Virus record (IMG/VR): IMGVR_UViG_3300001765_000193
Reading direction: 5' to 3' (one strand)
Origin: a virus
DNA: 34,986 nucleotides
Positions 6,209-30,943 of this stretch are shown piece after piece. Each line of letters begins with the position of its first letter. Position 1 is the first letter of the stretch. A program made the translations under genes and the position numbers. The notes under the pieces are model-generated. The model made no database searches. It saw nothing but the letters and a program-made list of their open reading frames with translations, and had not been told where the DNA came from.

Positions 6209-6465
6209 TCTTTAAATTTTATAATATCTTTTATATCGAAATTACTTAAATTAACATTGCTATTTTGGTCAATAGTTTGTTTTGGCATACCAAACATATA
6301 ATTAAAATATAATTTAACTGCCCAATCTTTGCCATCATTTAAAGCCTCTGTAAGTGCATTAAATGCAATAGGCTCTAATGGGGTTAACTTCTCGATTAAA
6401 CTTTGCTCTTCTGCCTTGCTTTTGCGTCCTGCCCCCTCTCTTGCTCCGCCTCGTTCCTTTTCCAT
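6205..6465 (-). CDS. terS: Putative terminase small subunit, 86 aa
   Basis: Basic N-terminus GGAREGAGRKSK. Lies immediately upstream of terL and overlaps it. Confidence 0.5.
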   Translation of the reverse strand: MEKERGGAREGAGRKSKAEEQSLIEKLTPLEPIAFNALTEALNDGKDWAVKLYFNYMFGMPKQTIDQNSNVNLSNFDIKDIIKFKE

Positions 6466-6487: not shown

Positions 6488-6742
6488 TTAGTTGCATTCT
6501 ATTTTAAAATAATACGATCCCGTAATAGGCTGGTAAGTTGCTGTTTCGCTTTCACAATTAAAATCCGTTGGTGTTCTTTTAATTTCTTTATAACCCCAAA
6601 TAGGCTCGATATTTGAAGTCCAACCAATAACATCGTATTTATACTCAACTCGTTCGCAATTGCAGTCGCCTGTTGGAGTATCTTCTGAACATTGCACCGC
6701 CATTAATGGAATGGTCAAAAGTGCTAAAAATAGTTTTTTCAT
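6488..6742 (-). CDS. Small secreted Cys-rich lipoprotein, 84 aa
   Basis: Signal peptide MKKLFLALLTIPLMAVQC with a lipobox Cys, plus four further Cys residues. Confidence 0.6.
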   Translation of the reverse strand: MKKLFLALLTIPLMAVQCSEDTPTGDCNCERVEYKYDVIGWTSNIEPIWGYKEIKRTPTDFNCESETATYQPITGSYYFKIECN

Positions 6743-15753: not shown

Positions 15754-16404
15754 TTAAAAAAGTTTTGTTTGTGAAATATGATTTTTTACTCTTTGTATTC
15801 CTTTGTCGTAGTATTCCTTGTCAAGTTCACAGCCAACCAATTCAAATCCATAATCGTGGCACGCTATTGCAATACTCATCGACCCTAAATGCGTATCGAG
15901 TATTTTATCGCCTTGCTTGGCGTATTTATTTAGAATAAACTTATATAAGTCAATTGGTTTTTCAGTTGGATGTATTCTATCACTTCCGTTATTTGCATTA
16001 GCACCAACCCAAGATTTAAAAAATTTTCTTATAGAACCATTAAAAGAAGTCCACGCTAATTCTCCATCAGCATAAGAATTATCTCCAGTACCTTTATCCC
16101 AAAATAACCAACATTGAGAATTTTCTAATAAATTAGAAAAATAATTTCCACCCCAAATAATTTGATTTTTTGATATTCTTTGTAATTCTTTAAAATAATC
16201 TTTAGATGGAATTGATTTATCCCAATCATTTTCTCTAAAATCTATAGTTTTAATTTTGGAAGTTCCGTTTTTAAAGTTTTTACTTCCAGCACCAATCCCA
16301 TAAGGCGGGTCAACAATAGCCAACTCGAAATAATTATCAGGATAACGTGCCATTAGTTGCATATTGCATTCGTTTGTCAATTCTATTTTATCTGTTAGTT
16401 TCAT
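15754..16404 (-). CDS. N6/N4 DNA methyltransferase (N6_N4_Mtase family), 216 aa
   Basis: Motif IV IVDPPYGIG, then HPTEKPIDLY, then motif I-like DTHLGSMS. Paralog of 20698-21417. Confidence 0.8.
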   Translation of the reverse strand: MKLTDKIELTNECNMQLMARYPDNYFELAIVDPPYGIGAGSKNFKNGTSKIKTIDFRENDWDKSIPSKDYFKELQRISKNQIIWGGNYFSNLLENSQCWLFWDKGTGDNSYADGELAWTSFNGSIRKFFKSWVGANANNGSDRIHPTEKPIDLYKFILNKYAKQGDKILDTHLGSMSIAIACHDYGFELVGCELDKEYYDKGIQRVKNHISQTKLF

Positions 16405-16406
16405 AA

Positions 16407-17249
16407 TTAGAATAGTGTTTCTTGACTTTTATTAATTAATGTTTTAGCAAATCCAAATTCTTCTATATCTTTTAATTTTTGATACTCTTCATTTATCCAA
16501 TTTTCGGCATTTTTATGAAATGGTTTTTTAATTTCAAACCCAAAACATTTTCTTTTTAATTCTTGCCCGGCTATTAAAGTTGAGCCACTACCCGCGCAAG
16601 GGTCTATAATTACGTCTCCTTCATCCGTAAAAATTTCAATTAGTTTTTTCAAAACTTTTAATGGTTTTTGAGTAGGGTGCAATTTTTCAATATTTGCATC
16701 ATCACGTTCCCAATCCAAGCAATTAAAAATCATTTTACCTTTGTTATTAAATTTTGGCAAACGATCACGATAAAATATTAAAGCATATTCGCAGTTACCT
16801 ACTACTTTCATATTTGCTTTTAAAACTTGTGCCGAAAAGTTTTTACGAAATACTAAATTTATATAATTTTTCAATCCGTATCTTTTAGCTAATTCAATTA
16901 AATACATTTGTTGGTCGAATGCACAAAAAACAATCATACAAGGTGCATCGCCTTTTTGTCTTGGTTCTCCATCTTCTGACTTTTTTGGTTTAGTTTCTGC
17001 TTTTAGCATTGTGCTACAAAAGTGCATAAATTCTGCTGGTCTAAAATCTTCATCGGTATCAAAGAAACTTTTACCAGCTAATTCACTTTCTCCATTTGCA
17101 TTGTCTCCGTCTTTATACCACGCTGGGTTTGATGCGTATGCGTTGTTTCCTAAATTATAAGGAATATCCGCAATTATTAATTGTGCTTTCGGAATCGCAT
17201 ATGTTTTGAAATTCTGAAAATGGTTATTAAATATTTGTGCTTTTTTCAT
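16407..17249 (-). CDS. N6/N4 DNA methyltransferase (beta-class order), 280 aa
   Basis: Motif IV variant IADIPYNLG, HPTQKPLKVLKKLIE, motif I DPCAGSGST. Confidence 0.8.
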   Translation of the reverse strand: MKKAQIFNNHFQNFKTYAIPKAQLIIADIPYNLGNNAYASNPAWYKDGDNANGESELAGKSFFDTDEDFRPAEFMHFCSTMLKAETKPKKSEDGEPRQKGDAPCMIVFCAFDQQMYLIELAKRYGLKNYINLVFRKNFSAQVLKANMKVVGNCEYALIFYRDRLPKFNNKGKMIFNCLDWERDDANIEKLHPTQKPLKVLKKLIEIFTDEGDVIIDPCAGSGSTLIAGQELKRKCFGFEIKKPFHKNAENWINEEYQKLKDIEEFGFAKTLINKSQETLF

Positions 17250-20697: not shown

Positions 20698-21417
20698 CTA
20701 AAACAACCGCAGTTGTGATTTAAAGTCATTAAAACGTTTTTCTTGTTTGTCATAATATTCTTTGTCTATTTCAAACCCTACAAAGTTGAACCCGCCTTTA
20801 TACGCTGCAATCCTACTGCTTCCACTTCCTAAATGTGTATCTAAAATCAAATCATTTGGCTTTGCATAGTTTGATAAAAGCCAGTCGTATAGTTTGGTTG
20901 GCTTTTGCGTTGGGTGTATTTTTATATCTCCGCAGTTAATATAAGCATCGGCTCTGCTATATCCAAATACTTTAAAAGTATTGATGCTTGTTTTTGCAAA
21001 TTCACCTTCCTTAAAATTTCCGCTTCCTTTTTTATACCAAACTATTACTCCTTCTAAATGTAAATTGTGAAAATAATTTCCACCCCATACAATTTGATTT
21101 TTAGATACTCTTTTTAGTTCGGAAAAATATTCATCTGTTGGCACTTCATTATCCCAATTTGTTTGATGATACTTTTTATAAGTTCCAGCATTTTTAGTAA
21201 ATCCTTTTTTGCCCCCTAAATCGTTTTGAGTTAAATCGGCATTTATCCCATAAGGCGGGTCAACTATTGCCAAATCAAAATGATTATCGTTAAATCGTTT
21301 TAATGCCTTTACACAATCTTCCAAATAAACCTCCGAAGTAGGCACTGCTGGTAACAGCGGTTTTGTGCTATTGCCTGTTTCTGGCTTAACTGAAAGTTCG
21401 TTTATATCTTCAAACAT
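20698..21417 (-). CDS. N6/N4 DNA methyltransferase, 239 aa (start moved to MFEDINEL)
   Basis: IVDPPYGIN, NQIVWGGNYF, HPTQKPTKLYDWLL, DTHLGSGSS. The start choice is supported by a repeated leader also found in front of the ASCH-like gene. Confidence 0.8.
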   Translation of the reverse strand: MFEDINELSVKPETGNSTKPLLPAVPTSEVYLEDCVKALKRFNDNHFDLAIVDPPYGINADLTQNDLGGKKGFTKNAGTYKKYHQTNWDNEVPTDEYFSELKRVSKNQIVWGGNYFHNLHLEGVIVWYKKGSGNFKEGEFAKTSINTFKVFGYSRADAYINCGDIKIHPTQKPTKLYDWLLSNYAKPNDLILDTHLGSGSSRIAAYKGGFNFVGFEIDKEYYDKQEKRFNDFKSQLRLF

Positions 21418-21488
21418 CTGTCTTAAATTTAAAGTTAGTGTGTGTTTTATCGGCAACAGCACAAAGCCACAAAACGTTAGCATCAAGA

Positions 21489-22680: not shown

Positions 22681-23436
22681 TTATTGTTTTTTAAATTGTT
22701 TAATAAATTCTAATCTCTTTTTATCATATATTTGATGCAAATCTGAATCTTCTTTATATATAGTTGTAAGCCTTTCTAATAAATCAACTAATTCACTATA
22801 CATTCTTTCTTTTTGCCATTTACCACCCACAATAAATAAAGTTTCATCTTTAAATAACCCACTTTTAACTGCTCTTTTAGCAGCTTCTTCAAGTGTTTCT
22901 TTATTTTGTAACTTATAGCCAGTATCTACATTAATTCCTCTAATTTTATTTTCAATAACTTGTTTAATAGCTTCTGACATTGTTCCTTGTTTATGTTCTT
23001 CTTTTGGAATGATTATTTTGTAGCTTACTTTACCAGCATTTTCATAAAACCCTCTCTCAGGTTCAACAAACTCGCAATTTGGGTTTTTTACAAACCATTC
23101 CAAAAATTGATCATCGATAGCTTGTACTCCGTCTTTGATTAAGTCTTTGTCTGTTGTTAGAATTATTTTAAACTCTTTATCAACAGTATTATAACCTGAT
23201 TTTGCAATTGCTTGAAAAATTTTATTTAATCTTTCATTGTAATAATAATCTCCCTCTTTAATTTCCCCATCAGAAGTGATGTAGATGTTTTGATTAACAG
23301 CATATTCCGAAACCATTGGTTTTTTAAATAATCTTAACTTTTTGTCATATTTATCAATAAATAATATACTCTCTTTATCCGTTGGTATTAACCATAAATT
23401 CTTTTTACTTTCCATAAACATCGTTTTTAAAATCAA
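22681..23436 (-). CDS. Hypothetical protein, 251 aa (start may be 23415)
   Basis: Minus-strand ORF with the pattern WLIPTDKESILF...QNIYITSDGEIKEGDYY. Confidence 0.55.
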   Translation of the reverse strand: MILKTMFMESKKNLWLIPTDKESILFIDKYDKKLRLFKKPMVSEYAVNQNIYITSDGEIKEGDYYYNERLNKIFQAIAKSGYNTVDKEFKIILTTDKDLIKDGVQAIDDQFLEWFVKNPNCEFVEPERGFYENAGKVSYKIIIPKEEHKQGTMSEAIKQVIENKIRGINVDTGYKLQNKETLEEAAKRAVKSGLFKDETLFIVGGKWQKERMYSELVDLLERLTTIYKEDSDLHQIYDKKRLEFIKQFKKQ

Positions 23437-23623
23437 TTAGTAATTCGGGTAAAGTTTTTTCTTTAAATGCTAAAGTGTGATTCAATTCTCTGTATTGAAT
23501 GTTTAACCACTCGGTAAAAGCAATAGTAAAATCATCTGTGATTTTCTCCCATTCGTCAAAATGTCTATTTAACGAATACGGTAATAATGCTTGTATAACA
23601 AGCTTCTCTCTTAATTTATTCAT
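23405..23623 (-). CDS. Hypothetical protein, 72 aa
   Basis: Minus-strand ORF. Confidence 0.45.
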   Translation of the reverse strand: MNKLREKLVIQALLPYSLNRHFDEWEKITDDFTIAFTEWLNIQYRELNHTLAFKEKTLPELLIDFKNDVYGK

Positions 23624-23915
23624 ATTTTAAATCTTTGTTATATTTGAAATAAACATTTTTTCCACAATAACTACCATTTCTGTATATAGGCTCTTCTTTT
23701 TTACAGATTAAATTCATTTCATAAAGTTTTACGCAAATATCGTATGTATCAGTAAACATCTTGTTATCAGCTTTAAACCATTCATTCTCGGGTTTGTCAA
23801 AAAGATTTGTAAAATGCCATCTTAAATCAATGCAATATACATCATTGATTTTATAAGCTCTTTTTTCTAAAGCTGTTAATTTTTCTAAAAACTGAGGTTC
23901 GTTAATTATTGCCAT
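23616..23915 (-). CDS. Hypothetical protein, 99 aa
   Basis: Minus-strand ORF. Confidence 0.5.
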   Translation of the reverse strand: MAIINEPQFLEKLTALEKRAYKINDVYCIDLRWHFTNLFDKPENEWFKADNKMFTDTYDICVKLYEMNLICKKEEPIYRNGSYCGKNVYFKYNKDLKYE

Positions 23916-24091
23916 TGTTTTATGTTTTTAATTTTCCAAGTTCCTATTAAATGAGTTGTATCGTGTTCATAAATGTCAGAAATTGCAATAACAAATACTT
24001 CATTATTTTTGTGGTAATTCTTTACCATTATTACATTATTTTTAGCAGATAAAACACTATGTTTACTATCTACTTTATAATTTGCTGTCAT
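23906..24091 (-). CDS. Hypothetical protein, 61 aa
   Basis: Minus-strand ORF. Confidence 0.45.
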   Translation of the reverse strand: MTANYKVDSKHSVLSAKNNVIMVKNYHKNNEVFVIAISDIYEHDTTHLIGTWKIKNIKQWQ

Positions 24092-24130
24092 AATAATTAT
24101 GCGTTACAGTCGCACCCCTGATTTTTTAGT

Positions 24131-24334
24131 TTAAGAATAATTTAAAATAATTGATTTTTTCATTTGAGGAATTCTGCAATCAGCTCTCAATTCTTTAACT
24201 TTTTTTGAACCTTCAATATTGTCAAAATATTGAATTTGCAATCCGTCTCTTTCAATAACTTCTCTTGTTTTAAAAAATCCAGAAGTCAATAATACTTCTT
24301 GTTTACCTGTTGATGTTGTTCTTGTAATTGTCAT
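24131..24334 (-). CDS. Hypothetical protein, 67 aa; first early gene
   Basis: Minus-strand ORF about 30 nt downstream of a -7 box. Confidence 0.5.
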   Translation of the reverse strand: MTITRTTSTGKQEVLLTSGFFKTREVIERDGLQIQYFDNIEGSKKVKELRADCRIPQMKKSIILNYS

Positions 24335-24364
24335 AATTTCTATTTTTTAAGTGTTATCTGAGTA

Positions 24365-24410
24365 CAAAAATAATAAACTTATTTTAATTAAAAAAACTTA
24401 TTTTAATTAA
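24365..24410 (-). promoter_or_regulatory. Early promoter: -7 box TATTTTTG preceded by two tandem TTAATTAAAATAAGT units
   Basis: Plus strand reads caaaaata at 24365-24372. Units lie at 24377-24391 and 24396-24410 and are identical to 19981-20014. Confidence 0.55.
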
Positions 24411-24440
24411 TTTTTACTATTTATATTGATTATAAATAAA

Positions 24441-24466
24441 AAACCTATCAAATTAATGATAGGTTT
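24441..24466 (-). terminator. Rho-independent terminator of the tmRNA-like unit
   Basis: 10-bp stem AAACCUAUCA/UGAUAGGUUU, 6-nt loop, then UUUAUUU. Confidence 0.7.
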
Positions 24467-24780
24467 AAATAACTTTACAGAATTTACACTGCATCTCGAC
24501 TTTAGAAGGGTCGTATTTTAAACTTAAACTAAAAGTTATAAGATTTCGTTCTTTTAAACGGAATTACACAGCCATTCTTAATGTTGCATTATTCAAATTA
24601 ATAACGTTGTCGGTTATTTTTTTTTAGCTCTCGATATTACTTACTTATCTATTGTCAAAGCCAAGCACCCCCAAAATATTCCGAATGTTCGGACACTTAT
24701 CAAACATAAACGTTTTGCGTTGTGGAGGTGGTGGGAGTCGAACCCACGTCCAAATAGATTTCATTAATACGTCAACGAAC
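24441..24780 (-). ncRNA. ssrA: Circularly permuted (two-piece) tmRNA-like RNA: acceptor piece then coding piece
   Basis: 24759->24723 reads AUCUAUU-UGGAC-GUGGG-UUCGACU-CCCAC-CACCUCC-A. 24672->24647 reads GGGGGUG-CUUGGCUUUGAC-AAUAGAU. The acceptor stem pairs fully with G3:U70, the P2 strands are exact complements, and there is no ORF in the unit. Confidence 0.6.
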
Positions 24781-24785
24781 TTTTA

Positions 24786-24801
24786 CAAAGATACAAAAAT
24801 A
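24786..24801 (-). promoter_or_regulatory. Two adjacent -7 boxes TATTTTTG-TATCTTTG driving the tmRNA-like unit
   Basis: Plus strand reads caaagata at 24786-24793 and caaaaata at 24794-24801, just downstream of the lysis-operon terminator. Confidence 0.45.
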
Positions 24802-24810
24802 TTTTTTAAA

Positions 24811-24838
24811 TAAAAAACCACCCTTTTGAGAGTGGTTT
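24811..24838 (-). terminator. Rho-independent terminator after the lysis cassette
   Basis: Stem AAACCAC/GUGGUUU (24815-24838) followed by a U run on the minus strand. Confidence 0.55.
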
Positions 24839-24937
24839 AATTTTCGAGTATTCCCAGACTTTACGCTATACTTCTCACGATAGTATTATACTCTAATAAC
24901 AAATAATTAAAATATGAAAAAACAAATATATGAATTA

Positions 24938-25330
24938 TTATTCAATAGTTATAAATACTTTGCCTTTTTTTAATCCGTTTTTTAATTTAGGAATAAAATT
25001 TGCCATTGCTTTTTTTGAACTTCCAACAAAATCAATACTTCTCGTTTGTCCCAATAATAAGCAACCCTCTGTATCTTTTGCAGTGTTACCAGCGTGTATT
25101 CTTATACCCTCAAAATTAGGTACTTTTAAAAGTAATGGTAACTCAATTTTAAACCTATTTGACATTGTGATTATAATTTCATAAGTTCCTTTAGGTATAG
25201 CTGTTTTACTATATATCTTTTGATCTCTTTCCACGTCTTCCAAAACAAAACATTCAAATTTGCCATCGATTGAAAGTTCTCCAATAGTTGAATTTTGTGT
25301 TTTATGCAGTCTTTTTAGTAGTAATTTCAT
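24938..25330 (-). CDS. Putative cell-wall hydrolase (DUF5675-like, L,D-peptidase-like HxGN...DTxGC motif), 130 aa
   Basis: STIGELSIDGKFECFVLED...IPKGTYEI...VPNFEGIRIHAGNTAKDTEGCLLLG. Last gene of the late operon, after two membrane proteins. Confidence 0.5.
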   Translation of the reverse strand: MKLLLKRLHKTQNSTIGELSIDGKFECFVLEDVERDQKIYSKTAIPKGTYEIIITMSNRFKIELPLLLKVPNFEGIRIHAGNTAKDTEGCLLLGQTRSIDFVGSSKKAMANFIPKLKNGLKKGKVFITIE

Positions 25331-25671
25331 TTTCCTATCATTTTTATAATTGTTTGTCTAACCGCCTCAATCAAAGAAGTTAAAAATAAATCTATATTCC
25401 ATTTATAGATTAGAAATTCCATTATCTTTTCGCCCGATATTGAAACGACCCCAATAATCAAAGGCAAATATTTGTTTTCACTTAAAAATGGATATATAAA
25501 ATAGGCACACCCGATGCCCGTTGTAAAACTTATAACTACTCTTATAAACGTCATCTTTTCCTTTTTAATTTGAGTTGCTAATTTTATACTAATTCCAACT
25601 ATTGCTGGTATTGCAATTTTAACAAAAAAAGAATTTAATTCATACCAAAAATTCGGCTCTTTTTCAATCAT
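25327..25671 (-). CDS. Holin-like membrane protein (3 TM), 114 aa
   Basis: Hydrophobic segments FFVKIAIPAIVGISIKL, VVISFTTGIGCAYFIYPF and LPLIIGVVSISG. Adjacent to the lysin. Confidence 0.45.
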   Translation of the reverse strand: MIEKEPNFWYELNSFFVKIAIPAIVGISIKLATQIKKEKMTFIRVVISFTTGIGCAYFIYPFLSENKYLPLIIGVVSISGEKIMEFLIYKWNIDLFLTSLIEAVRQTIIKMIGK

Positions 25672-25957
25672 TTTTTCTAAATTTAAAAAACCATATTATT
25701 GGTAAAATTAGTATTAATAAAATTTCATTATAACCTAAAATCGTGTTATCAAAATACAATTCGTCAAGTAGATTGTTTAACGACAGTCCAAAGATAAAAA
25801 AAATTATAAAACTTTTTCTTTCGTGATAAAATAAATATAACGAAATTAGAAAAATAAATAAAGCGTTACCAATATAAAAGCTACCTTTTGGGAGGTGTTC
25901 CCAAAACATATAAGTTAATATTCCGATTAATAACGCTAAATATAAAACCGCTTTCAT
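25664..25957 (-). CDS. Holin/antiholin-like membrane protein (4 TM), 97 aa
   Basis: Almost entirely hydrophobic. Lies in the lysis cassette. Confidence 0.45.
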   Translation of the reverse strand: MKAVLYLALLIGILTYMFWEHLPKGSFYIGNALFIFLISLYLFYHERKSFIIFFIFGLSLNNLLDELYFDNTILGYNEILLILILPIIWFFKFRKND

Positions 25958-26136
25958 TATCTATCTTTTGGTCTTGTCCCTACTATTTCATTTTGATTTT
26001 CGTCAATCAATGTGTAGATAGTTAACCCCTCGTTTTCAAGCGTTTTATTGGCTTGGTTAATTTTCGCTTGTTGGTCTTGCGTTGCTACCTTTTTAGCTTT
26101 TCTCTCTGTTCTAATTCTAAATAAAATAAATTCCAT
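25957..26136 (-). CDS. Hypothetical small protein, 59 aa (below cutoff)
   Basis: Hand translation MEFILFRIRTERKAKKVATQDQQAKINQ...TRPKDR. TAATG overlap with the next gene. Confidence 0.45.
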   Translation of the reverse strand: MEFILFRIRTERKAKKVATQDQQAKINQANKTLENEGLTIYTLIDENQNEIVGTRPKDR

Positions 26137-26140
26137 TGTG

Positions 26141-26485
26141 TTATCGTATTAATTGTTTATACTCGTTTATTAATCTTTGTTGCTCTTCTAAAATTTCTTT
26201 TGGTATTGGTATTTGTCTTGTTGCTAATTTTTGAACGTGCTTATCAACTAAATCAGAAATTAATTTAGTGTACTTAATATCTAATTCGTTGTTGAATTTA
26301 GCATTGAACTCGTTTATCTCTTCTTTTGTGGCACTTTCATAAAATTCATTAGTATTAGGATTGAATTTTGTTAAAATAAAATTATCAACACACAACAATT
26401 CAGTTGTTCCAAAAAATTTATTTTCTATAAAATCATCTTCAACACTAATTACTAAATTAGTTTTTTTATCAAAAATTGTTTTCAT
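26141..26485 (-). CDS. Hypothetical protein (possible fibre assembly factor), 114 aa
   Basis: ORF directly after the fibre gene with a 1-nt overlap. Confidence 0.3.
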   Translation of the reverse strand: MKTIFDKKTNLVISVEDDFIENKFFGTTELLCVDNFILTKFNPNTNEFYESATKEEINEFNAKFNNELDIKYTKLISDLVDKHVQKLATRQIPIPKEILEEQQRLINEYKQLIR

Positions 26486-27462
26486 TAATTTTTTATTAAA
26501 TTAGCCATTGTGATTTGAAATATATGATTTGCTGTTGATTGTACGCTAATAATTAAATATTGATTAACTGCTCGGTTAAATGCAATTAAAGAAGGATTTG
26601 TATTAATAACACCTAAATCATTTGTTGTATTTACCGCTGTATTTAAAACTATTAAATTAGAGCCTTTAATCATTATTGTTCTTTGAAGTGGTATCTCTTG
26701 TATTGATGGGATATTTTGACTATAAAAACCTATTAAAGTTGCTCCTACAAGTGTATCGCTTGTGTTTACATAAGCTCTTAAAGTATAAGCACCCCCTCCT
26801 CCTGATATTTTTACAAATCTTACATTAAGAAGTAAATTACTTTCATCTGCTATTCGATTAGCTGGAATAAGATAAGACTTTAATTTTTGTTCAGTTGTAA
26901 CCGCAGCCCCTGTTGCAGTTACTCCATCTGTAAATATAATATCAACTTTCAAAGCCAACGCATCGAAAACCGCGTTTTGTGATGGTGCAACCGTTGTAAC
27001 TCCGTCAACTATTGCATCTGTTACTTTTGCATCTGCATAAGAGTTTGAGGTTGTATTTGTTGCGTTATCGCCTGTGTTTGTACCGCTTGTATTACTTAAT
27101 ATTGTTATTTCAGAGTTTGTTATAAGTCTTGAACCCGTTAACAATAAAGCATCGATGTTACTTTTTGCCATATCGTAGGTACTTTTTAAAGCCGTTGTAA
27201 AAGCTTCTGTAATTGCATCTAAAATAGTTCTATTGGTATGTGTTATTGCGGTTTTCTCGGCACTTGTTACAAATTTATTAGTAGTTCCACTATCTGAAAT
27301 ATCATCAGCATCTAAAACTACTATGCCAGTTTGTCCGTTTACACTATCGACTGCACCGCCACCGCTTTGAGTATTTACATTAATAGTAGTTAGAAATTGC
27401 GTTGTATTTATAGTAACCTCTTCAATAGTTGGCGTTACATTAATATCTATTATATCACTCAT
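26485..27462 (-). CDS. Tail fibre protein, 325 aa
   Basis: VDSVNGQTGIVVLDADDISD and VAPSQNAVFDALALK motifs typical of phage fibres. T/N/S-rich. Confidence 0.65.
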   Translation of the reverse strand: MSDIIDINVTPTIEEVTINTTQFLTTINVNTQSGGGAVDSVNGQTGIVVLDADDISDSGTTNKFVTSAEKTAITHTNRTILDAITEAFTTALKSTYDMAKSNIDALLLTGSRLITNSEITILSNTSGTNTGDNATNTTSNSYADAKVTDAIVDGVTTVAPSQNAVFDALALKVDIIFTDGVTATGAAVTTEQKLKSYLIPANRIADESNLLLNVRFVKISGGGGAYTLRAYVNTSDTLVGATLIGFYSQNIPSIQEIPLQRTIMIKGSNLIVLNTAVNTTNDLGVINTNPSLIAFNRAVNQYLIISVQSTANHIFQITMANLIKN

Positions 27463-27800
27463 ATTGTTATAGTATTAATAATTTGAAAATAGCCACCTAC
27501 CCAAGTTTTAACTCTACCATCTGACAAAGTAATTTGAATATCATAAACATAATTACAAGCAGGAATATTAAAAATTTGCTCATTAATTACAAACCTACCA
27601 TTAATAGCATCTGTAATAGTAATACCATTATTTGCCACACTTGTCAAAGTTAACAAAGGACTTGAACACGCATCTTTTTTTAAATCTATTTTAACCTCAG
27701 CATCGGTTAAATCCAAAGCTACTGAATTAATCAATATTTGAAAAGGGTACTCACTAAACGTGTCTCCCCTTAATGTTTGTATGTTCAGTTTTCCTATCAT
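27459..27800 (-). CDS. Beta-sandwich virion protein (BppU-N-like/fibre adaptor?), 113 aa
   Basis: The pattern LRGDTFSEYPF...LDLTDAEVKIDLKK...ITITDAINGRFVI...YVYDIQITLSDGRVKTWVGGYFQI. Confidence 0.35.
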   Translation of the reverse strand: MIGKLNIQTLRGDTFSEYPFQILINSVALDLTDAEVKIDLKKDACSSPLLTLTSVANNGITITDAINGRFVINEQIFNIPACNYVYDIQITLSDGRVKTWVGGYFQIINTITI

Positions 27801-27854
27801 TTTCCTCTTGTTTTTTTAAAAATATTTCTATTTTCTTAATATTGATTTCTTGTT

Positions 27855-28400
27855 TTACGTTCGATTTTTTAGCTGTCTCCATAATACGTATTCGTCTTCT
27901 GTTATTGTTTGTTTAGGGAAGTGCCACCCGCTATTTGATGACCTTTGAGGGTTTACAATAGCATCTGAACTACTTATATACTCTGGCAATTGCTTTTTAC
28001 AAAGCCACTTTTTCATTCTTTCGGCATACATATCAGCTACTAATCGTCTTTCGTTTACAATTCTTGACAAAGTTTGCTCTGTTACTGCTGTTGTATTTGC
28101 AGGTGTAGGTATTGTTATTCCATTATTAGCAATACTAAAAGCCCCGATTTTTAAGTATTCCGTTGCACTCTGTTGAATTAAAAATGGTTTGATATAATCA
28201 CGATACAAAATTAAATAATCACCGCTTAAAACGTTGTTATCGAAATCGGTTTCTATTTTATCATACAAAATTTCCCCAAGTAACTCTTCTAATCGTGTAG
28301 CCTGTGCATCTAAAATACATTGACGTAATTTATCCACGTCGATATTACCCCCCAAAGGCGTGTTTTTTGTAATATCGTTGTCTTCTAATAATATTATCAT
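27855..28400 (-). CDS. Putative head-tail adaptor/connector, 181 aa
   Basis: Lies immediately after the portal. Pattern NIDVDKLRQCILDAQATRLEELLGEILYDKI...YIKPFL. Confidence 0.35.
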   Translation of the reverse strand: MIILLEDNDITKNTPLGGNIDVDKLRQCILDAQATRLEELLGEILYDKIETDFDNNVLSGDYLILYRDYIKPFLIQQSATEYLKIGAFSIANNGITIPTPANTTAVTEQTLSRIVNERRLVADMYAERMKKWLCKKQLPEYISSSDAIVNPQRSSNSGWHFPKQTITEDEYVLWRQLKNRT

Positions 28401-28402
28401 TA

Positions 28403-30043
28403 TTATTTTAATTTAAAATAATTATTACTTTCTTGAGCTGGCTGTGCCACCAAAGGGTCGTTTACTTCAAGCCTTGCATTTTCTCTATCTTTAGGATCTA
28501 ACGCTAAAATCATTTTAATAGCTTGGTTTACAGAAATTTGTTTGTTACCTTTTTTAAGATATATTTTACGCATCCAAAAATGCTTACAATTAACTCCGCC
28601 TTTGTAAAGCCATATATTATAAGTATCTGCCCCATTTGCTCCAAGTCCAGCATTAACAACTTTTGTACTTGCAAGTTCTATATCTTCTTTACGATATGTT
28701 TTGTTTGCCTTAATCATTTTGTTGCAAAAATCACGCTCCCCTGTTTGCTCCCCTGCATATTGATAACGAATTTTAAAAAGTTCATTATCCTGTTCGCTTG
28801 GTGCAAGTGGAATACTATCTACAACGCTTGCTAATTTCAAAGAAGTTTCTGTCAATTGTGGCTCGCCTGTCATTGCTCTTTCGTCAATCAATTCCCACTC
28901 ATTCTCGTTTATATCTTCACCAAGTTCAATCAAAGGCTCGGCTGTTGGATTGACTTCCTCTTTTGCCATTGCTACTTCAGTTCCACTTTGTGCCTCGTCT
29001 TTTTTAGCTTGTCTTAATGGAATAAACTCTAAATTTTCAGCACCTCCAATTAAAGTATAAATTTCTTGAAACGCATCTAAAATTATTTCTTGTTTCGGTT
29101 GTATAACATTCAGCATCGTTTCGTTAAATGCGGTTTCAATTTCTTCTGCGTTGCTTGAAAAACCTGTTGAATTTGAAATCCCTAAAATAGAACTTGAAAC
29201 CACTTTGTGAGCAACTAATAATTTCTGTTGAGCTTCTTTACTTAAAAAGTCATATTGTTGGTACGCATCAACAACCTGCACCTGTTCAATTGTAGTTGCT
29301 GTATCTTTGTTCTCGTTAAAAGATACAACTACAACCCCTGCGTTGTTTGTGCCTGTCGTTCCATTTTTATATTGTCTTGTTATTTTGTTTCGTTCTTCTT
29401 CACTTTCAGGAATACCATTGTTTAAATTTATGATAGTTGAAACCATAAATTTATTTTGAATATGATTAATAAAGAAGTTTGAAATTTCTTCTTCTACTTT
29501 TGCATATTGCAACGCACTTACATAACTTGGATTTGAAAAATAAAACTGACCTACTTGATAATCTTTAATTACAAAAATTTCACTCCTATTTGAACCCTTA
29601 CCATATCCGTAAGCGTCAATTCTTTTAGGTGTGTACTTTTGTTGTTTGCTCCAATCATAGCAATAGTAATAAGCTGTTATTTTACCTTCGTCATTTGCTT
29701 TCTCGGGTGCTAATTTCTCTTTCGGGGTGTGAACTATTTTAAGCGGTTTGCCACCTTTGTATATAATTTCAAAAGACGCCTCTTCAAACATCTCGAAATC
29801 TTTTACAATTTTGCGTACTTCTTTTTTATTAAATAGTGGAATGTTAACATTTAAACCTAAGCCATAAATCATTCTACTATATGAATCTATAATAGCCGAG
29901 TTAGTTGGACTTCCGTTGTATCTGTCGATAATGTATTGGTAAAACTCGTTATTTTCGCCATTCAAAACCCAATTTTTATAGTTATTTTCAACTATTGTAG
30001 GGCGTACATAACTTGATAATTGTATAATTTCTGTCTTAATCAT
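28403..30043 (-). CDS. Portal protein with C-terminal Mu F/SPP1 gp7-like extension, 546 aa
   Basis: Portal-like size and N-terminal pattern. The C-terminus ERDFCNKMIKANKTYRKEDI...YKGGVNCKHFW resembles the head-morphogenesis domain. Confidence 0.6.
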   Translation of the reverse strand: MIKTEIIQLSSYVRPTIVENNYKNWVLNGENNEFYQYIIDRYNGSPTNSAIIDSYSRMIYGLGLNVNIPLFNKKEVRKIVKDFEMFEEASFEIIYKGGKPLKIVHTPKEKLAPEKANDEGKITAYYYCYDWSKQQKYTPKRIDAYGYGKGSNRSEIFVIKDYQVGQFYFSNPSYVSALQYAKVEEEISNFFINHIQNKFMVSTIINLNNGIPESEEERNKITRQYKNGTTGTNNAGVVVVSFNENKDTATTIEQVQVVDAYQQYDFLSKEAQQKLLVAHKVVSSSILGISNSTGFSSNAEEIETAFNETMLNVIQPKQEIILDAFQEIYTLIGGAENLEFIPLRQAKKDEAQSGTEVAMAKEEVNPTAEPLIELGEDINENEWELIDERAMTGEPQLTETSLKLASVVDSIPLAPSEQDNELFKIRYQYAGEQTGERDFCNKMIKANKTYRKEDIELASTKVVNAGLGANGADTYNIWLYKGGVNCKHFWMRKIYLKKGNKQISVNQAIKMILALDPKDRENARLEVNDPLVAQPAQESNNYFKLK

Positions 30044-30324
30044 AGTAATTTGTAATTTTCTAATTCATTATCAGTCGCATAAGCCTTTCCACGCCATACT
30101 AACTCCGTTTCTGTATAACAATTTATCTCATAACTTGCTCCCTCTTTAAAATCAAAATCAAAAGATATGTTCAAATAACCATTATCATTGAATGAAATTA
30201 AATCTGTTATAATTGTAGTTGTATCTGTTAATTCGTGACGTATTGATAAAGTAACATTTTCAACGTATAAACGTGGAACTATTTTTAAAATATGCGTTAT
30301 ATCTGTCGGTTTAAATACTTTCAT
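30040..30324 (-). CDS. Hypothetical virion protein, 94 aa
   Basis: ORF preceded by late motif copy 2. 4-nt overlap with the portal gene. Confidence 0.4.
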   Translation of the reverse strand: MKVFKPTDITHILKIVPRLYVENVTLSIRHELTDTTTIITDLISFNDNGYLNISFDFDFKEGASYEINCYTETELVWRGKAYATDNELENYKLL

Positions 30325-30326
30325 AT

Positions 30327-30358
30327 CTATATAACGAAAAACTTTGTTTTTTTTGCAA
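30327..30358 (-). promoter_or_regulatory. Late-gene motif copy 2: TTGCAA-N16-CGTTATATAG-N2-ATG
   Basis: Hexamer, 16-nt spacing and 10-mer are all identical to copy 1. Follows a strong terminator. Confidence 0.45.
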
Positions 30359-30391
30359 AAAAAAAGCTATGAAATTAATTTCATAGCTTTT
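30357..30391 (-). terminator. Rho-independent terminator
   Basis: 13-14-bp perfect stem AAAAGCUAUGAAA(U)/(A)UUUCAUAGCUUUU followed by a U9 run. Confidence 0.8.
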
Positions 30392-30409
30392 AAAAATCAA
30401 TTATCAATA

Positions 30410-30943
30410 TTAAACCACCGCAATTATATCAGTAGAAACTAAAGCTGTTAAAGCTGTTTTCATTGAACTATTTAAAAAAGGGGCTCCCAATTTTTCAGTT
30501 CCTGTTAACTCAACTGTGTATCCTGTTAAGTCACCACCTGCACCACCTGTTACAATAGTCCCGGCGGTCATATCCATTCCATTTTCAACGCCACATAAAA
30601 AAATATTTCCGTTATAATCTTCAACAAAAACCTGCGGTCTGCCGTACATCATAAGTTTCAATTCTTGTTGCGTTTCAGGATCTAATTTTGGGAATGTTGC
30701 CGCAATTACTTGCGTAAAAAAAGTAGTTCCATTATCCCTTGACGGATTACCTGTTTGCGTTAAAGTATTTGTACTTCCTTTTAACTCCCATTTAAAAACC
30801 TCCGCTAAAGTACCTAAAGCGGTTACTATTTCATTTGCTATTGTATAGCCATATTCGTTGAAATTAGCGAAGTACAACGCTTTAATTCCGCCCATCTGGT
30901 CTTTACAAACAATTTTTTTTCCTTTGCCTAAATCACAAGCCAT
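30410..30943 (-). CDS. Putative major tail (tube) protein, 177 aa
   Basis: GGIKALYFANF...NGTTFFTQVIAATFPKLD...GRPQVFVEDYNGNIFLCGVENGMDMT...GDLTGYTVELTG resembles tail-tube families. Flanked by terminators, which would fit high expression. Confidence 0.35.
   Translation of the reverse strand: MACDLGKGKKIVCKDQMGGIKALYFANFNEYGYTIANEIVTALGTLAEVFKWELKGSTNTLTQTGNPSRDNGTTFFTQVIAATFPKLDPETQQELKLMMYGRPQVFVEDYNGNIFLCGVENGMDMTAGTIVTGGAGGDLTGYTVELTGTEKLGAPFLNSSMKTALTALVSTDIIAVV

Follow-up and report, generated by a model that had tools for sequence, protein, structure and literature searches.

The virus record IMGVR_UViG_3300001765_000193 of IMG/VR comprises 34,986 nucleotides (hereafter the window, meaning this whole stretch of DNA), in which all long open reading frames (ORFs) lie on the minus strand at a G+C content of 24-34%. 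A unit of about 340 nt within it was proposed in an initial annotation to lie between the lysis cassette and the early genes, which fits the neighbouring ORFs: a DUF5675 protein and a weakly holin-like ORF upstream, and small ORFs without a match downstream. Transfer-messenger RNA (tmRNA), the product of ssrA, is the nearly universal bacterial ribosome-rescue RNA. Judging from the sequence and its relatives, we put at roughly 0.85 the probability that this unit is a real phage ssrA gene of the circularly permuted form, and very probably a functional one. The sequence elements listed in the initial annotation can be read directly from the minus strand and, with those added here, run from 5' to 3' as follows.

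24815-24838, minus strand: intrinsic terminator of the upstream (lysis-side) operon, directly before the cassette; in the terminator scan, a 10-bp stem followed by a T-run
24786-24801, minus strand: two adjoining TAnnTTTG boxes, TATTTTTG (24801-24794) and TATCTTTG (24793-24786)
24723-24781, minus strand: acceptor piece, delimited by the Rfam alignment, ARAGORN, covariation of the T and acceptor stems, and the tests of helix P2
24781-24753, minus strand: 5' tail of the acceptor piece with the P2c, P2b and P2a strands; AUCUAUU is 24759-24753
24751-24748, minus strand: GGAC of the acceptor piece, preceded by U
24747-24731, minus strand: T arm, with stem GUGGG/CCCAC (24747-24743 and 24735-24731) and loop UUCGACU
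24730-24724, minus strand: 3' acceptor strand CACCUCC, followed by the discriminator A at 24723
24673-24722, minus strand: 50-nt intervening sequence, for which removal is predicted
24654-24672, minus strand: 5' end of the coding piece, with GGGGGUG (24672-24666), the 2-nt linker CU and the D-loop analogue UGGCUUUGAC (24663-24654)
24626-24653, minus strand: 3' strands of the three-segment helix P2, namely P2a AAUAGAU (24653-24647), P2b UAAUA (24639-24635) and P2c UCGA+GAGCU (24634-24626)
24625-24612, minus strand: A-rich linker and UAACC before the tag
24564-24611, minus strand: tag frame from ARAGORN and the Rfam alignment, with resume codon GAC (24611-24609), tag DNVINLNNATLRMAV and stop codon UAA (24566-24564)
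24583-24573, minus strand: hairpin CAUU-AAG-AAUG over the Leu-Arg codons, which covaries
24540-24563, minus strand: post-tag segment with the hairpin CGUU-UAAAAG-AACG (24560-24547)
24468-24539, minus strand: weak tRNA-Arg(UCU)-like gene on the same transcript as the tmRNA; Rfam tRNA, 39.3 bits
24441-24466, minus strand: intrinsic terminator of the cassette, from the terminator scan, followed by TTTATTTATAATCA

The permuted layout was recognized by both ARAGORN and Rfam. ARAGORN called a permuted tmRNA (tmRNA*) at 24473-24813 on the minus strand with the tag DNVINLNNATLRMAV*, and the family tmRNA_permuted (RF04321; Rfam 15, gathering score 47) matched with 61.6 bits along the full model (positions 1-213 of 213; whole-window E = 9.3e-10). 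RF04321 is the match displayed for its clan, with five lower-scoring same-clan matches at E <= 10 hidden behind it; RF01849, RF01850 and RF01851 are not displayed even at E <= 10, in output that suppresses lower same-clan matches and leaves subtype scores out of view. The same Rfam scan of the window returned no riboswitch. CACCUCC (24730-24724) pairs with GGGGGUG (24672-24666) to give a 7-bp acceptor stem whose 3' strand is encoded upstream of its 5' strand, and the alanine identity elements G3:U70 and discriminator A73 are present. A GGUUCGANUCC-type loop follows GGAC, and a GGNUUYGAC-type D-loop analogue follows the 5' strand. CCA is not encoded, the trailer being CAA. Helix P2 comprises 21 canonical pairs in three segments, and each of the 41 pairs derived by comparison is canonical in the window.

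The unit also has its own promoter and terminator, as had been suggested. The boxes at 24801-24786 sit 5-7 nt upstream of the RNA start (~24781/24780), and the terminator at 24466-24441 was recovered in a scan of 24300-24960 that found 4 sites against 0.1 expected. As the upstream operon is closed by its own terminator at 24838-24815, the unit is a fully self-contained cassette; an equivalent terminator lies 3' of the homologous 130-aa ORF in the related locus L164 (loci and contigs compared with the window carry L numbers). The TAnnTTTG box, which we take to be the -7 element of Bacteroidota sigma-A promoters, is kept at the same position in L011, L023, L048, L052, L124, L128 and L129. Across the genome the motif occurs 88 times against 71 +/- 7.6, an excess too weak for host assignment, and a composite -33/-7 promoter motif showed no genome-wide enrichment. 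Within the intervening sequence, which across the family ranges from 39 to 164 nt and is unconserved in sequence, the window has a GC-containing hairpin (24693-24680, minus strand) followed by AUAUUUU, and a further TAnnTTTG box, TATGTTTG, at 24708-24701 on the minus strand, about 29 nt upstream of G1. Given this box and hairpin, the acceptor and coding pieces might be transcribed or terminated separately.

Homologues also support the two-piece RNA. A search of IMG/VR with a pattern for the layout returned at least 120 permuted tmRNA-like loci; nine of these are 70-80% identical to the window across 200-280 nt, all nine passing RF04321 at 53-65 bits. A second pattern, describing the coding piece alone (5' strand, D-loop analogue and tag end), found 52 viral contigs with 42 distinct sequences; where enough upstream sequence was available, almost every contig had a T arm and a 3' strand pairing 7/7 with its own 5' strand. 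Acceptor positions 5-7 covary (GUG/CAC, UAG/CUA, UCG/CGA, CUG/CAG, ACG/CGU, AUA/UAU and AUG/CAU, with GCG/CGC in a Flavobacterium prophage member), and no family sequence with both pieces departs from G3:U70 and A73. After splicing out of the intervening sequence, 27 sequences were aligned with MAFFT, and RNAalifold gave a consensus consisting of the acceptor and T stems, the outer P2 helix and the small hairpin over the Leu-Arg codons. Paired cells made up 89% of this consensus, compared with 42-55% in slid-partner controls, and compensatory changes were found in 21 of its 36 pairs; GC, AU, CG and UA types all occur in the T stem.

Two tests of P2 that do not depend on an alignment gave the same answer. 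The P2 duplex was more stable with a sequence's own coding piece than with those of others (-10.3 vs -7.85 kcal/mol, Mann-Whitney p = 4e-6). For the inner helix P2a, whose register is fixed by GGAC/GAC, 123 of 168 cells were canonical against 100.5 +/- 4.8 after partner shuffling, and none of 1000 shuffles reached the observed value. The initial annotation had proposed a circularly permuted, two-piece tmRNA with a fully paired acceptor stem containing G3:U70, and a P2 helix extendable by UAAUA, and had named compensatory changes in both helices as something to look for in relatives. Each of these features was recovered here: the layout by ARAGORN, RF04321, more than 40 homologues and covariation; the 7/7 stem in the window itself; the extended helix by its 21 pairs and by the cognate-duplex and fixed-register tests; and the compensatory changes at acceptor positions 5-7 and in the 21 of 36 pairs.

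Several relatives (L048, L086, L052, L034, L062, L023, L013, L015 and L232) are missed by ARAGORN at its default threshold or have their tag misread, L048 receiving a spurious 31-aa tag, and L232 falls below the Rfam gathering score because of its T stem CGGAG/CUCCG. Since the defaults of ARAGORN and Rfam miss many family members, the annotation of phages and metagenome-assembled genomes (MAGs) undercounts the lineage.

The tag reading frame is under coding constraint, as judged from its pattern of substitution. The resume codon is most likely GAC at 24611-24609, on the grounds of ARAGORN, the Rfam alignment, a conserved UAAC/UAAA at -5 to -2 and amino-acid conservation in the upstream part of the tag. 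We take the U and A at -5/-4 (AAUAACC before GAC) to correspond to the frame-setting positions U85/A86 of E. coli tmRNA. The frame is kept in relatives with synonymous changes, the tags being IKVINLFREPLRMAV in L048, FKVVSLFREPLRIAV in L062, VKVIQMNTTPLRMAV in L034, GKLISLNNAPLRAVA in L078 and L232, and GKTIQMFPQQLRAVA in L234. In a set of 40 distinct sequences, the third positions of the last three tag codons have an entropy of 1.7-1.9 bits; their second positions, although unconstrained by the search pattern, are always C or U, and these codons therefore specify Ala or Val in 40/40. The tag C-termini of all 40 members are accordingly Ala/Val-rich (e.g., LRAVA, LRMAV and LRAAA), and the aligned tag region contains a single indel, of 3 nt.

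Two tag frames had been put forward earlier. The first, encoding AKKK, overlaps the P2c strand; the length of its A-run varies among relatives and the frame is not conserved, so it was rejected. The second, encoding ATLRMAV, is in the right frame and forms the C-terminal half of the tag; it was truncated, and the resume codon assigned to it gives way to GAC. A hairpin at the resume codon, AAUAAC-N7-GUUAUU, occurs only with xKVI tag starts and is absent from GKTI-type members; it was regarded as arising incidentally from the upstream motif and the codons. The suggestion that the tag spares its products from proteolysis is disfavoured by the Ala/Val-rich end in 40/40 and by the tag GENNLRLAA of a one-piece Bacteroidales tmRNA, which shares an 'LR..AA'-type end with the window family.

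Several observations weigh against a functional permuted ssrA. The unconstrained minimum free energy (MFE) fold of the two pieces gives the acceptor stem and T arm and not P2, and its z-score against shuffled sequences is only -1.5; the co-folding of the two pieces proposed earlier thus succeeded for the former two elements and not for P2, support for which is comparative. The resume codon is assigned by comparison, and it varies in the family (GAC, GGC, AUC, UUC, GUA, GCA). PK1 and PK2-PK4 are absent, with only a small hairpin (4-bp in the window) or a terminator after the stop codon. No phage SmpB was found among the window ORFs scanned. Lastly, the tmRNA is missing from all 20 loci whose flanking 130-aa protein is closest to that of the window, including L164 with 85% identity.

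The lack of pseudoknots deserves particular attention. A tmRNA typically has four, with PK1 between P2 and the resume codon, a feature that is typical rather than strictly defining; pseudoknots, and PK1 in particular, have long been debated as a functional requirement. In the window, the distance from G1 to the resume codon is 60 nt, compared with at least 89 nt in standard forms, and about 15 A-rich nucleotides separate the last P2 strand from the resume codon. The spacing of 58-64 nt in the window family leaves no room for PK1, and the efficiency of trans-translation is uncertain because the pseudoknots are absent.

Absence from the closest relatives makes the tmRNA cassette an accessory element. 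In L164, the gene and its terminator are followed by TTTATTTATAATCA and the early genes (L164 3443-3490). In the window, the same 14-mer TTTATTTATAATCA stands after the cassette's own terminator (24437-24466), and the first terminator (24810-24838 region) is followed by TTTATTTA, which fits an insertion of the cassette in the terminator tail accompanied by a short duplication. In L078, whose structural genes are shared with the window, the tmRNA lies elsewhere, between tRNAs. Given the absence or relocation in relatives and the layout of terminators and 14-mer, the unit behaves as an inserted, accessory promoter-to-terminator cassette. The near-identical strain L158 (IMGVR_UViG_3300033515_000009; 99.8-99.97% identity, compared with window 23007-30526) has the cassette intact. 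In L158, other sequence replaces window ~24957-26941, which holds the holin-like ORF and neighbouring small genes, a clean module swap beside the cassette.

A decaying relic, either an attP-type (phage attachment site) 3' fragment of a host ssrA or a captured gene out of use that merely resembles a permuted tmRNA, would account for this absence from the 20 closest syntenic relatives, and tmRNA genes are indeed common integration sites whose 3' fragments phages can carry (PMC9004378, PMC4383910). However, the unit contains both halves, which covary in over 40 diverged contigs; its tag frame is conserved, it is served by a promoter and terminator of its own, and no integrase was found among the large ORFs scanned in the window. 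Moreover, the permuted order cannot arise from an attP fragment, and the 5' half and tag, covarying with the 3' half, weigh strongly against the plain attP relic that had been named as an alternative. We consider a relic of either kind very improbable.

The cassette travels with phages of Bacteroidota. The portal protein of the window (28403-30043) shares 43% identity with its counterpart in Nonlabens (Persicivirga) phage P12024S, a marine flavobacterial siphovirus of 35.7 kb; both genomes have a terminase, VapE-type primase, helicase, YqaJ exonuclease, sigma-70-region-2 protein and methyltransferases, and P12024S contains no tRNA or tmRNA. Family members were found in a prophage-like region in the genome of the cultured Flavobacterium caseinilyticum AT-3-2 and in a 97-kb contig of a Bacteroidales MAG, which links the family to Bacteroidota hosts. 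Three of the six matches in this genome scan were ordinary one-piece Bacteroidales tmRNAs matching the pattern by chance, and these were reused as comparators. In the tmRNA database, Bacteroidota account for 24,380 standard and 48 permuted entries, and the findings here suggest that the 48 may be of this kind. Separately, the window carries three DNA methyltransferase-like genes (15754-16404, 16407-17249 and 20698-21486, minus strand), two of them adjoining, which in a 35-kb genome suggests heavy investment in anti-restriction.

Permuted tmRNA genes are established for three bacterial lineages and mitochondria (PMC11915505); the two-piece tmRNAs of Alphaproteobacteria, some Betaproteobacteria and Cyanobacteria are credited in PMC9004378 and PMC11915505 to Keiler 2000 and Sharkady & Williams 2004. 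In phage genomes, 53 unique two-piece tmRNAs have been counted with ARAGORN, mostly in marine phages (PMC9004378), so that a permuted tmRNA in a phage is not new. The initial annotation, which knew of no such layout in a phage or in Bacteroidota, is superseded on this point by that count and by GenBank phages considered below. What is new here is a compact, pseudoknot-free lineage of Bacteroidota phages on a mobile cassette. We found no paper in the literature that discusses the form of the tmRNA gene in Bacteroidota phages, and blastn of the unit against INPHARED gave nothing at E <= 1e-5 and only T-arm-length matches at E <= 10, hence no close homologue among those phages.

The permuted lineages represented by RF04321 (alpha, beta and cyano) share with the window the order of acceptor piece, intervening sequence and coding piece, an acceptor stem formed in trans, G3:U70, the T arm, the D-loop analogue, a long P2 and a tag ORF. 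Against the RF04321 consensus, the window has a 2-nt instead of a 3-nt linker (a 1-nt deletion), UUUGAC instead of UUCGAC and CAA instead of CCA. The tRNA-like domain (TLD) signature of these lineages, with a 3-nt linker, UGGUUUCGAC and encoded CCA, is absent from the window family and is carried by proteobacterial-type phage examples. More generally, tmRNAs with proteobacterial-type tags (ANDxx[FY]ALAA) have a linker of 3-4 nt after the 5' strand, the D-loop analogue UGGUUUCGAC, a usually encoded CCA and 82-108 nt from G1 to the resume codon, whereas the window family and the crAss-like group have a 2-nt linker, UGGNUUUGAC, a CCA that is usually not encoded and 58-64 nt. The portal protein, the TAnnTTTG box and the Bacteroidota family members place the carrier outside Alphaproteobacteria, Betaproteobacteria and Cyanobacteria and their phages, and the host phylum of the window phage, Bacteroidota, uses one-piece tmRNA, unlike those permuted lineages. 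The two-piece tmRNAs of marine phages (OM43 phage Melnitz, pelagimyophages and cyanophages; PMC9004378) are likewise phage-borne, marine and accessory, common without being group-defining, but they resemble alphaproteobacterial or cyanobacterial host tmRNA, while that of the window has a Bacteroidota-type TLD and is far more compact. Melnitz has a glutamine riboswitch (PMC9004378).

Further parallels come from phages annotated with a plain 'tmRNA SsrA'. These are cr7_1 and cr10_1, both crAss-like Suoliviridae, and Chryseobacterium phage MA9V-3 (PV245944), all of which are permuted according to ARAGORN (tmRNA*) and RF04321 (above the gathering score). For cr124_1 and cr60_1, which bear the same 'tmRNA' annotation under matching blastn hits, permutation was not re-checked. 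MA9V-3 (~61 nt), cr10_1 and crAss-like IMG/VR contigs have, as the window has, about 60 nt from G1 to the resume codon, and cr10_1 and the crAss-like contigs also have the 2-nt linker and UUUGAC; MA9V-3 has CGGTTTCGAC in place of UUUGAC, and its D-loop analogue ends in UUCGAC. The tags of the crAss-like phages and MA9V-3 start like that of the window, (G/D)N(V/N)(I/F)..., but belong to the families GNxFVTDYTxLxxA and GNVIDINKYVAKLEVAA as opposed to ...LR(A/M)(A/V)(A/V), and similarity to the window is confined to the TLD. As a side observation, cr10_1 (MT774382; L163 129-307) has a RAGATH-9 RNA match of 97 bits about 1.2 kb upstream of its permuted tmRNA. In L227, a viral contig with a chance 18-mer match, two skipping-rope RNA matches (RF02924) lie at 6339-6419 and 6551-6636.

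The TLD of the window resembles that of one-piece Bacteroidota tmRNAs. We compared it with 93 one-piece metagenomic tmRNAs chosen by the tag GENNYALAA alone, presumably the Bacteroidota tag. In this set, a 2-nt linker was found in 77/93 and TTTGAC in 82/93, CCA was rarely encoded and CAA was the commonest trailer, all as in the window; the distance from G1 to the resume codon was 92-99 nt. One-piece Bacteroidota-type tmRNAs as a whole (the GENNYALAA set, the Bacteroidales MAG sequences L233, L235 and L237, and Cellulophaga phage Calle) differ from the window in their standard order, a length of 370-400 nt, pseudoknots and 92-111 nt to the resume codon. Calle (MT732433) has a one-piece tmRNA (also PMC8776804) with the 5' end GGGGGCG-AC-TGGTTTTGAC.

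A host-type TLD on a permuted, pseudoknot-free body fits both an independent permutation from a Bacteroidota-type gene and convergence on host SmpB, alanyl-tRNA synthetase (AlaRS) and RNase P. Tentatively, and recognizing that the odds are rather against it, we propose that the window RNA and the tmRNAs of the crAss-like and Chryseobacterium phages form a fourth lineage, permuted independently from a one-piece Bacteroidota-type tmRNA; such a lineage would have lost its pseudoknots to become a two-piece 'mini-tmRNA' of about 200 nt, moving among Bacteroidota phages as a cassette, often with a tRNA-shaped RNase P handle.

A tRNA-like element lies at the 3' end of the window unit. The segment 24539-24468, earlier included in the coding piece, scores 39.3 bits with the Rfam tRNA family (gathering score 29) and is called tRNA-Arg(tct) by ARAGORN with -ps; at default settings ARAGORN reports nothing there. 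It starts 25 nt after the tag stop, within the same transcription unit. We regard it as separate from the tmRNA body, either a real tRNA or a processing handle. Its D loop lacks GG, its T loop reads GUAAAUU, it has a C31-A39 mismatch, and its fold is no more stable than shuffled sequences (MFE z-score -0.53). Homologues of the element were limited to the near-identical strain L158, apart from five 18-mer matches that look like chance, and because the sole other copy is in L158, no covariation test applies. The element is absent from all diverged family members, and most relatives have a terminator directly after the tag.

One might ask whether this element is the actual product, the unit being a tRNA operon that supplies tRNA-Arg(UCU) for AGA-rich codon usage with the tmRNA part incidental. 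AGA is the commonest Arg codon of the window (78/149 in 12 long ORFs), and tRNAs flank family tmRNAs in L078, L232, cr7_1 and cr10_1. However, most family members have no tRNA after the tag, the conserved element is the tmRNA part, and the tRNA-like element is weak, failing ARAGORN at default settings and having non-canonical D and T loops and the z-score given above. The chance that the unit is primarily a tRNA operon appears almost negligible to us.

Crass-like permuted tmRNAs likewise have a tRNA-shaped element directly 3' of the coding piece, in the IMG/VR contigs L031 (9058-9130), L037 (772-843), L040 (4318-4390), L051 (1231-1302) and L054 (11543-11615) and in the GenBank genomes cr10_1 (L163 1769-1834) and cr7_1 (L162 1746-1812). 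The five IMG/VR elements are well formed: their 6-nt anticodon loop, AUUUUA, is conserved and the stem covaries, and ARAGORN labels them 'tRNA-??? (tt)'; the cr10_1 element has a 6-nt loop of other sequence, and that of cr7_1 is called tRNA-Cys(aca). By analogy, tRNA-shaped elements after the coding piece may be a handle for processing by RNase P/Z and not a decoder. Rfam tRNA matches of 111-113 nt also stand beside family tmRNAs in the Flavobacterium prophage L232 (2474-2584) and in L078 (57-169); these are too long for ordinary tRNAs and may contain an insertion or intron of about 40 nt.

Building on the anatomy, homology, covariation and coding signature observed, we infer the following course for processing, charging and use of SmpB, for what becomes of tagged proteins and for how the phage benefits. 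A precursor of about 340 nt, with the acceptor piece, the 50-nt intervening sequence, the coding piece, the tRNA-like element and the terminator, would be transcribed from the Bacteroidota-type promoter. From the known tmRNA pathway, G1 (24672) is the predicted cleavage site of RNase P; the host enzyme would cut 5' of G24672, with a second cut probable at the 5' side of the tRNA-like element downstream. The 3' end would be trimmed to A24723, and since the gene encodes CAA, a CCA-adding enzyme would be needed to complete an acceptor piece of about 61 nt ending in ...CACCUCCA-CCA, with the CCA non-templated. This piece and a coding piece of about 135 nt would be held together by the 7-bp acceptor stem and the three-segment P2 of about 21 bp. 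Host AlaRS would charge the RNA through G3:U70 and A73, and host SmpB and EF-Tu would deliver it to ribosomes stalled on broken mRNAs. Translation would resume at GAC 24611, (A)DNVINLNNATLRMAV would be appended, and tagged products would end in ...ADNVINLNNATLRMAV. The hydrophobic, Ala/Val-terminated tag probably marks the product for proteolysis. At the lysis/early junction, the cassette would most likely provide more ribosome-rescue capacity during infection, when mRNA breakage is high.

The RNA might instead compete with or re-program the host system, binding host SmpB and stalled ribosomes so as to titrate that system or to swap in a phage tag with another fate, either escape from degradation or use of another protease; trans-translation would then turn out to the phage's advantage. 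Its tag is longer than and different from the Bacteroidota-type GENNYALAA and GENNLRLAA, its architecture has no pseudoknot at all, and, there being no phage SmpB, host SmpB must be shared. A precedent is the TLD-only mini-tmRNA of mycobacteriophage DS6A, reported as a tmRNA inhibitor and likewise a phage-borne, strongly reduced derivative (PMC4131195, PMC11915505). The DS6A molecule lacks a tag reading frame and is not permuted, whereas the window RNA keeps a conserved tag ORF. Coding constraint on that frame, a C-terminus that in 40/40 is Ala/Val-rich like canonical degrons, and retention of the full alanine identity set together with the upstream frame-setting motif are more than a decoy needs. 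A competitor role is thus unlikely in our judgement, and active trans-translation is the preferred reading.

A tmRNA of about 200 nt in two pieces and free of pseudoknots, maintained by selection in dozens of diverged phages, would offer a natural minimal scaffold on which to study the requirements of trans-translation. An independent origin, if true, would add a further convergent gene permutation and would mean that phages as well as cells generate such forms. In Bacteroidota MAGs, genes of this kind may flag prophages or mis-binned phage contigs. The cassette also offers a handle on why lytic phages invest in ribosome rescue, for which mRNA breakage during host takeover and host RNase-based defences are candidate reasons.

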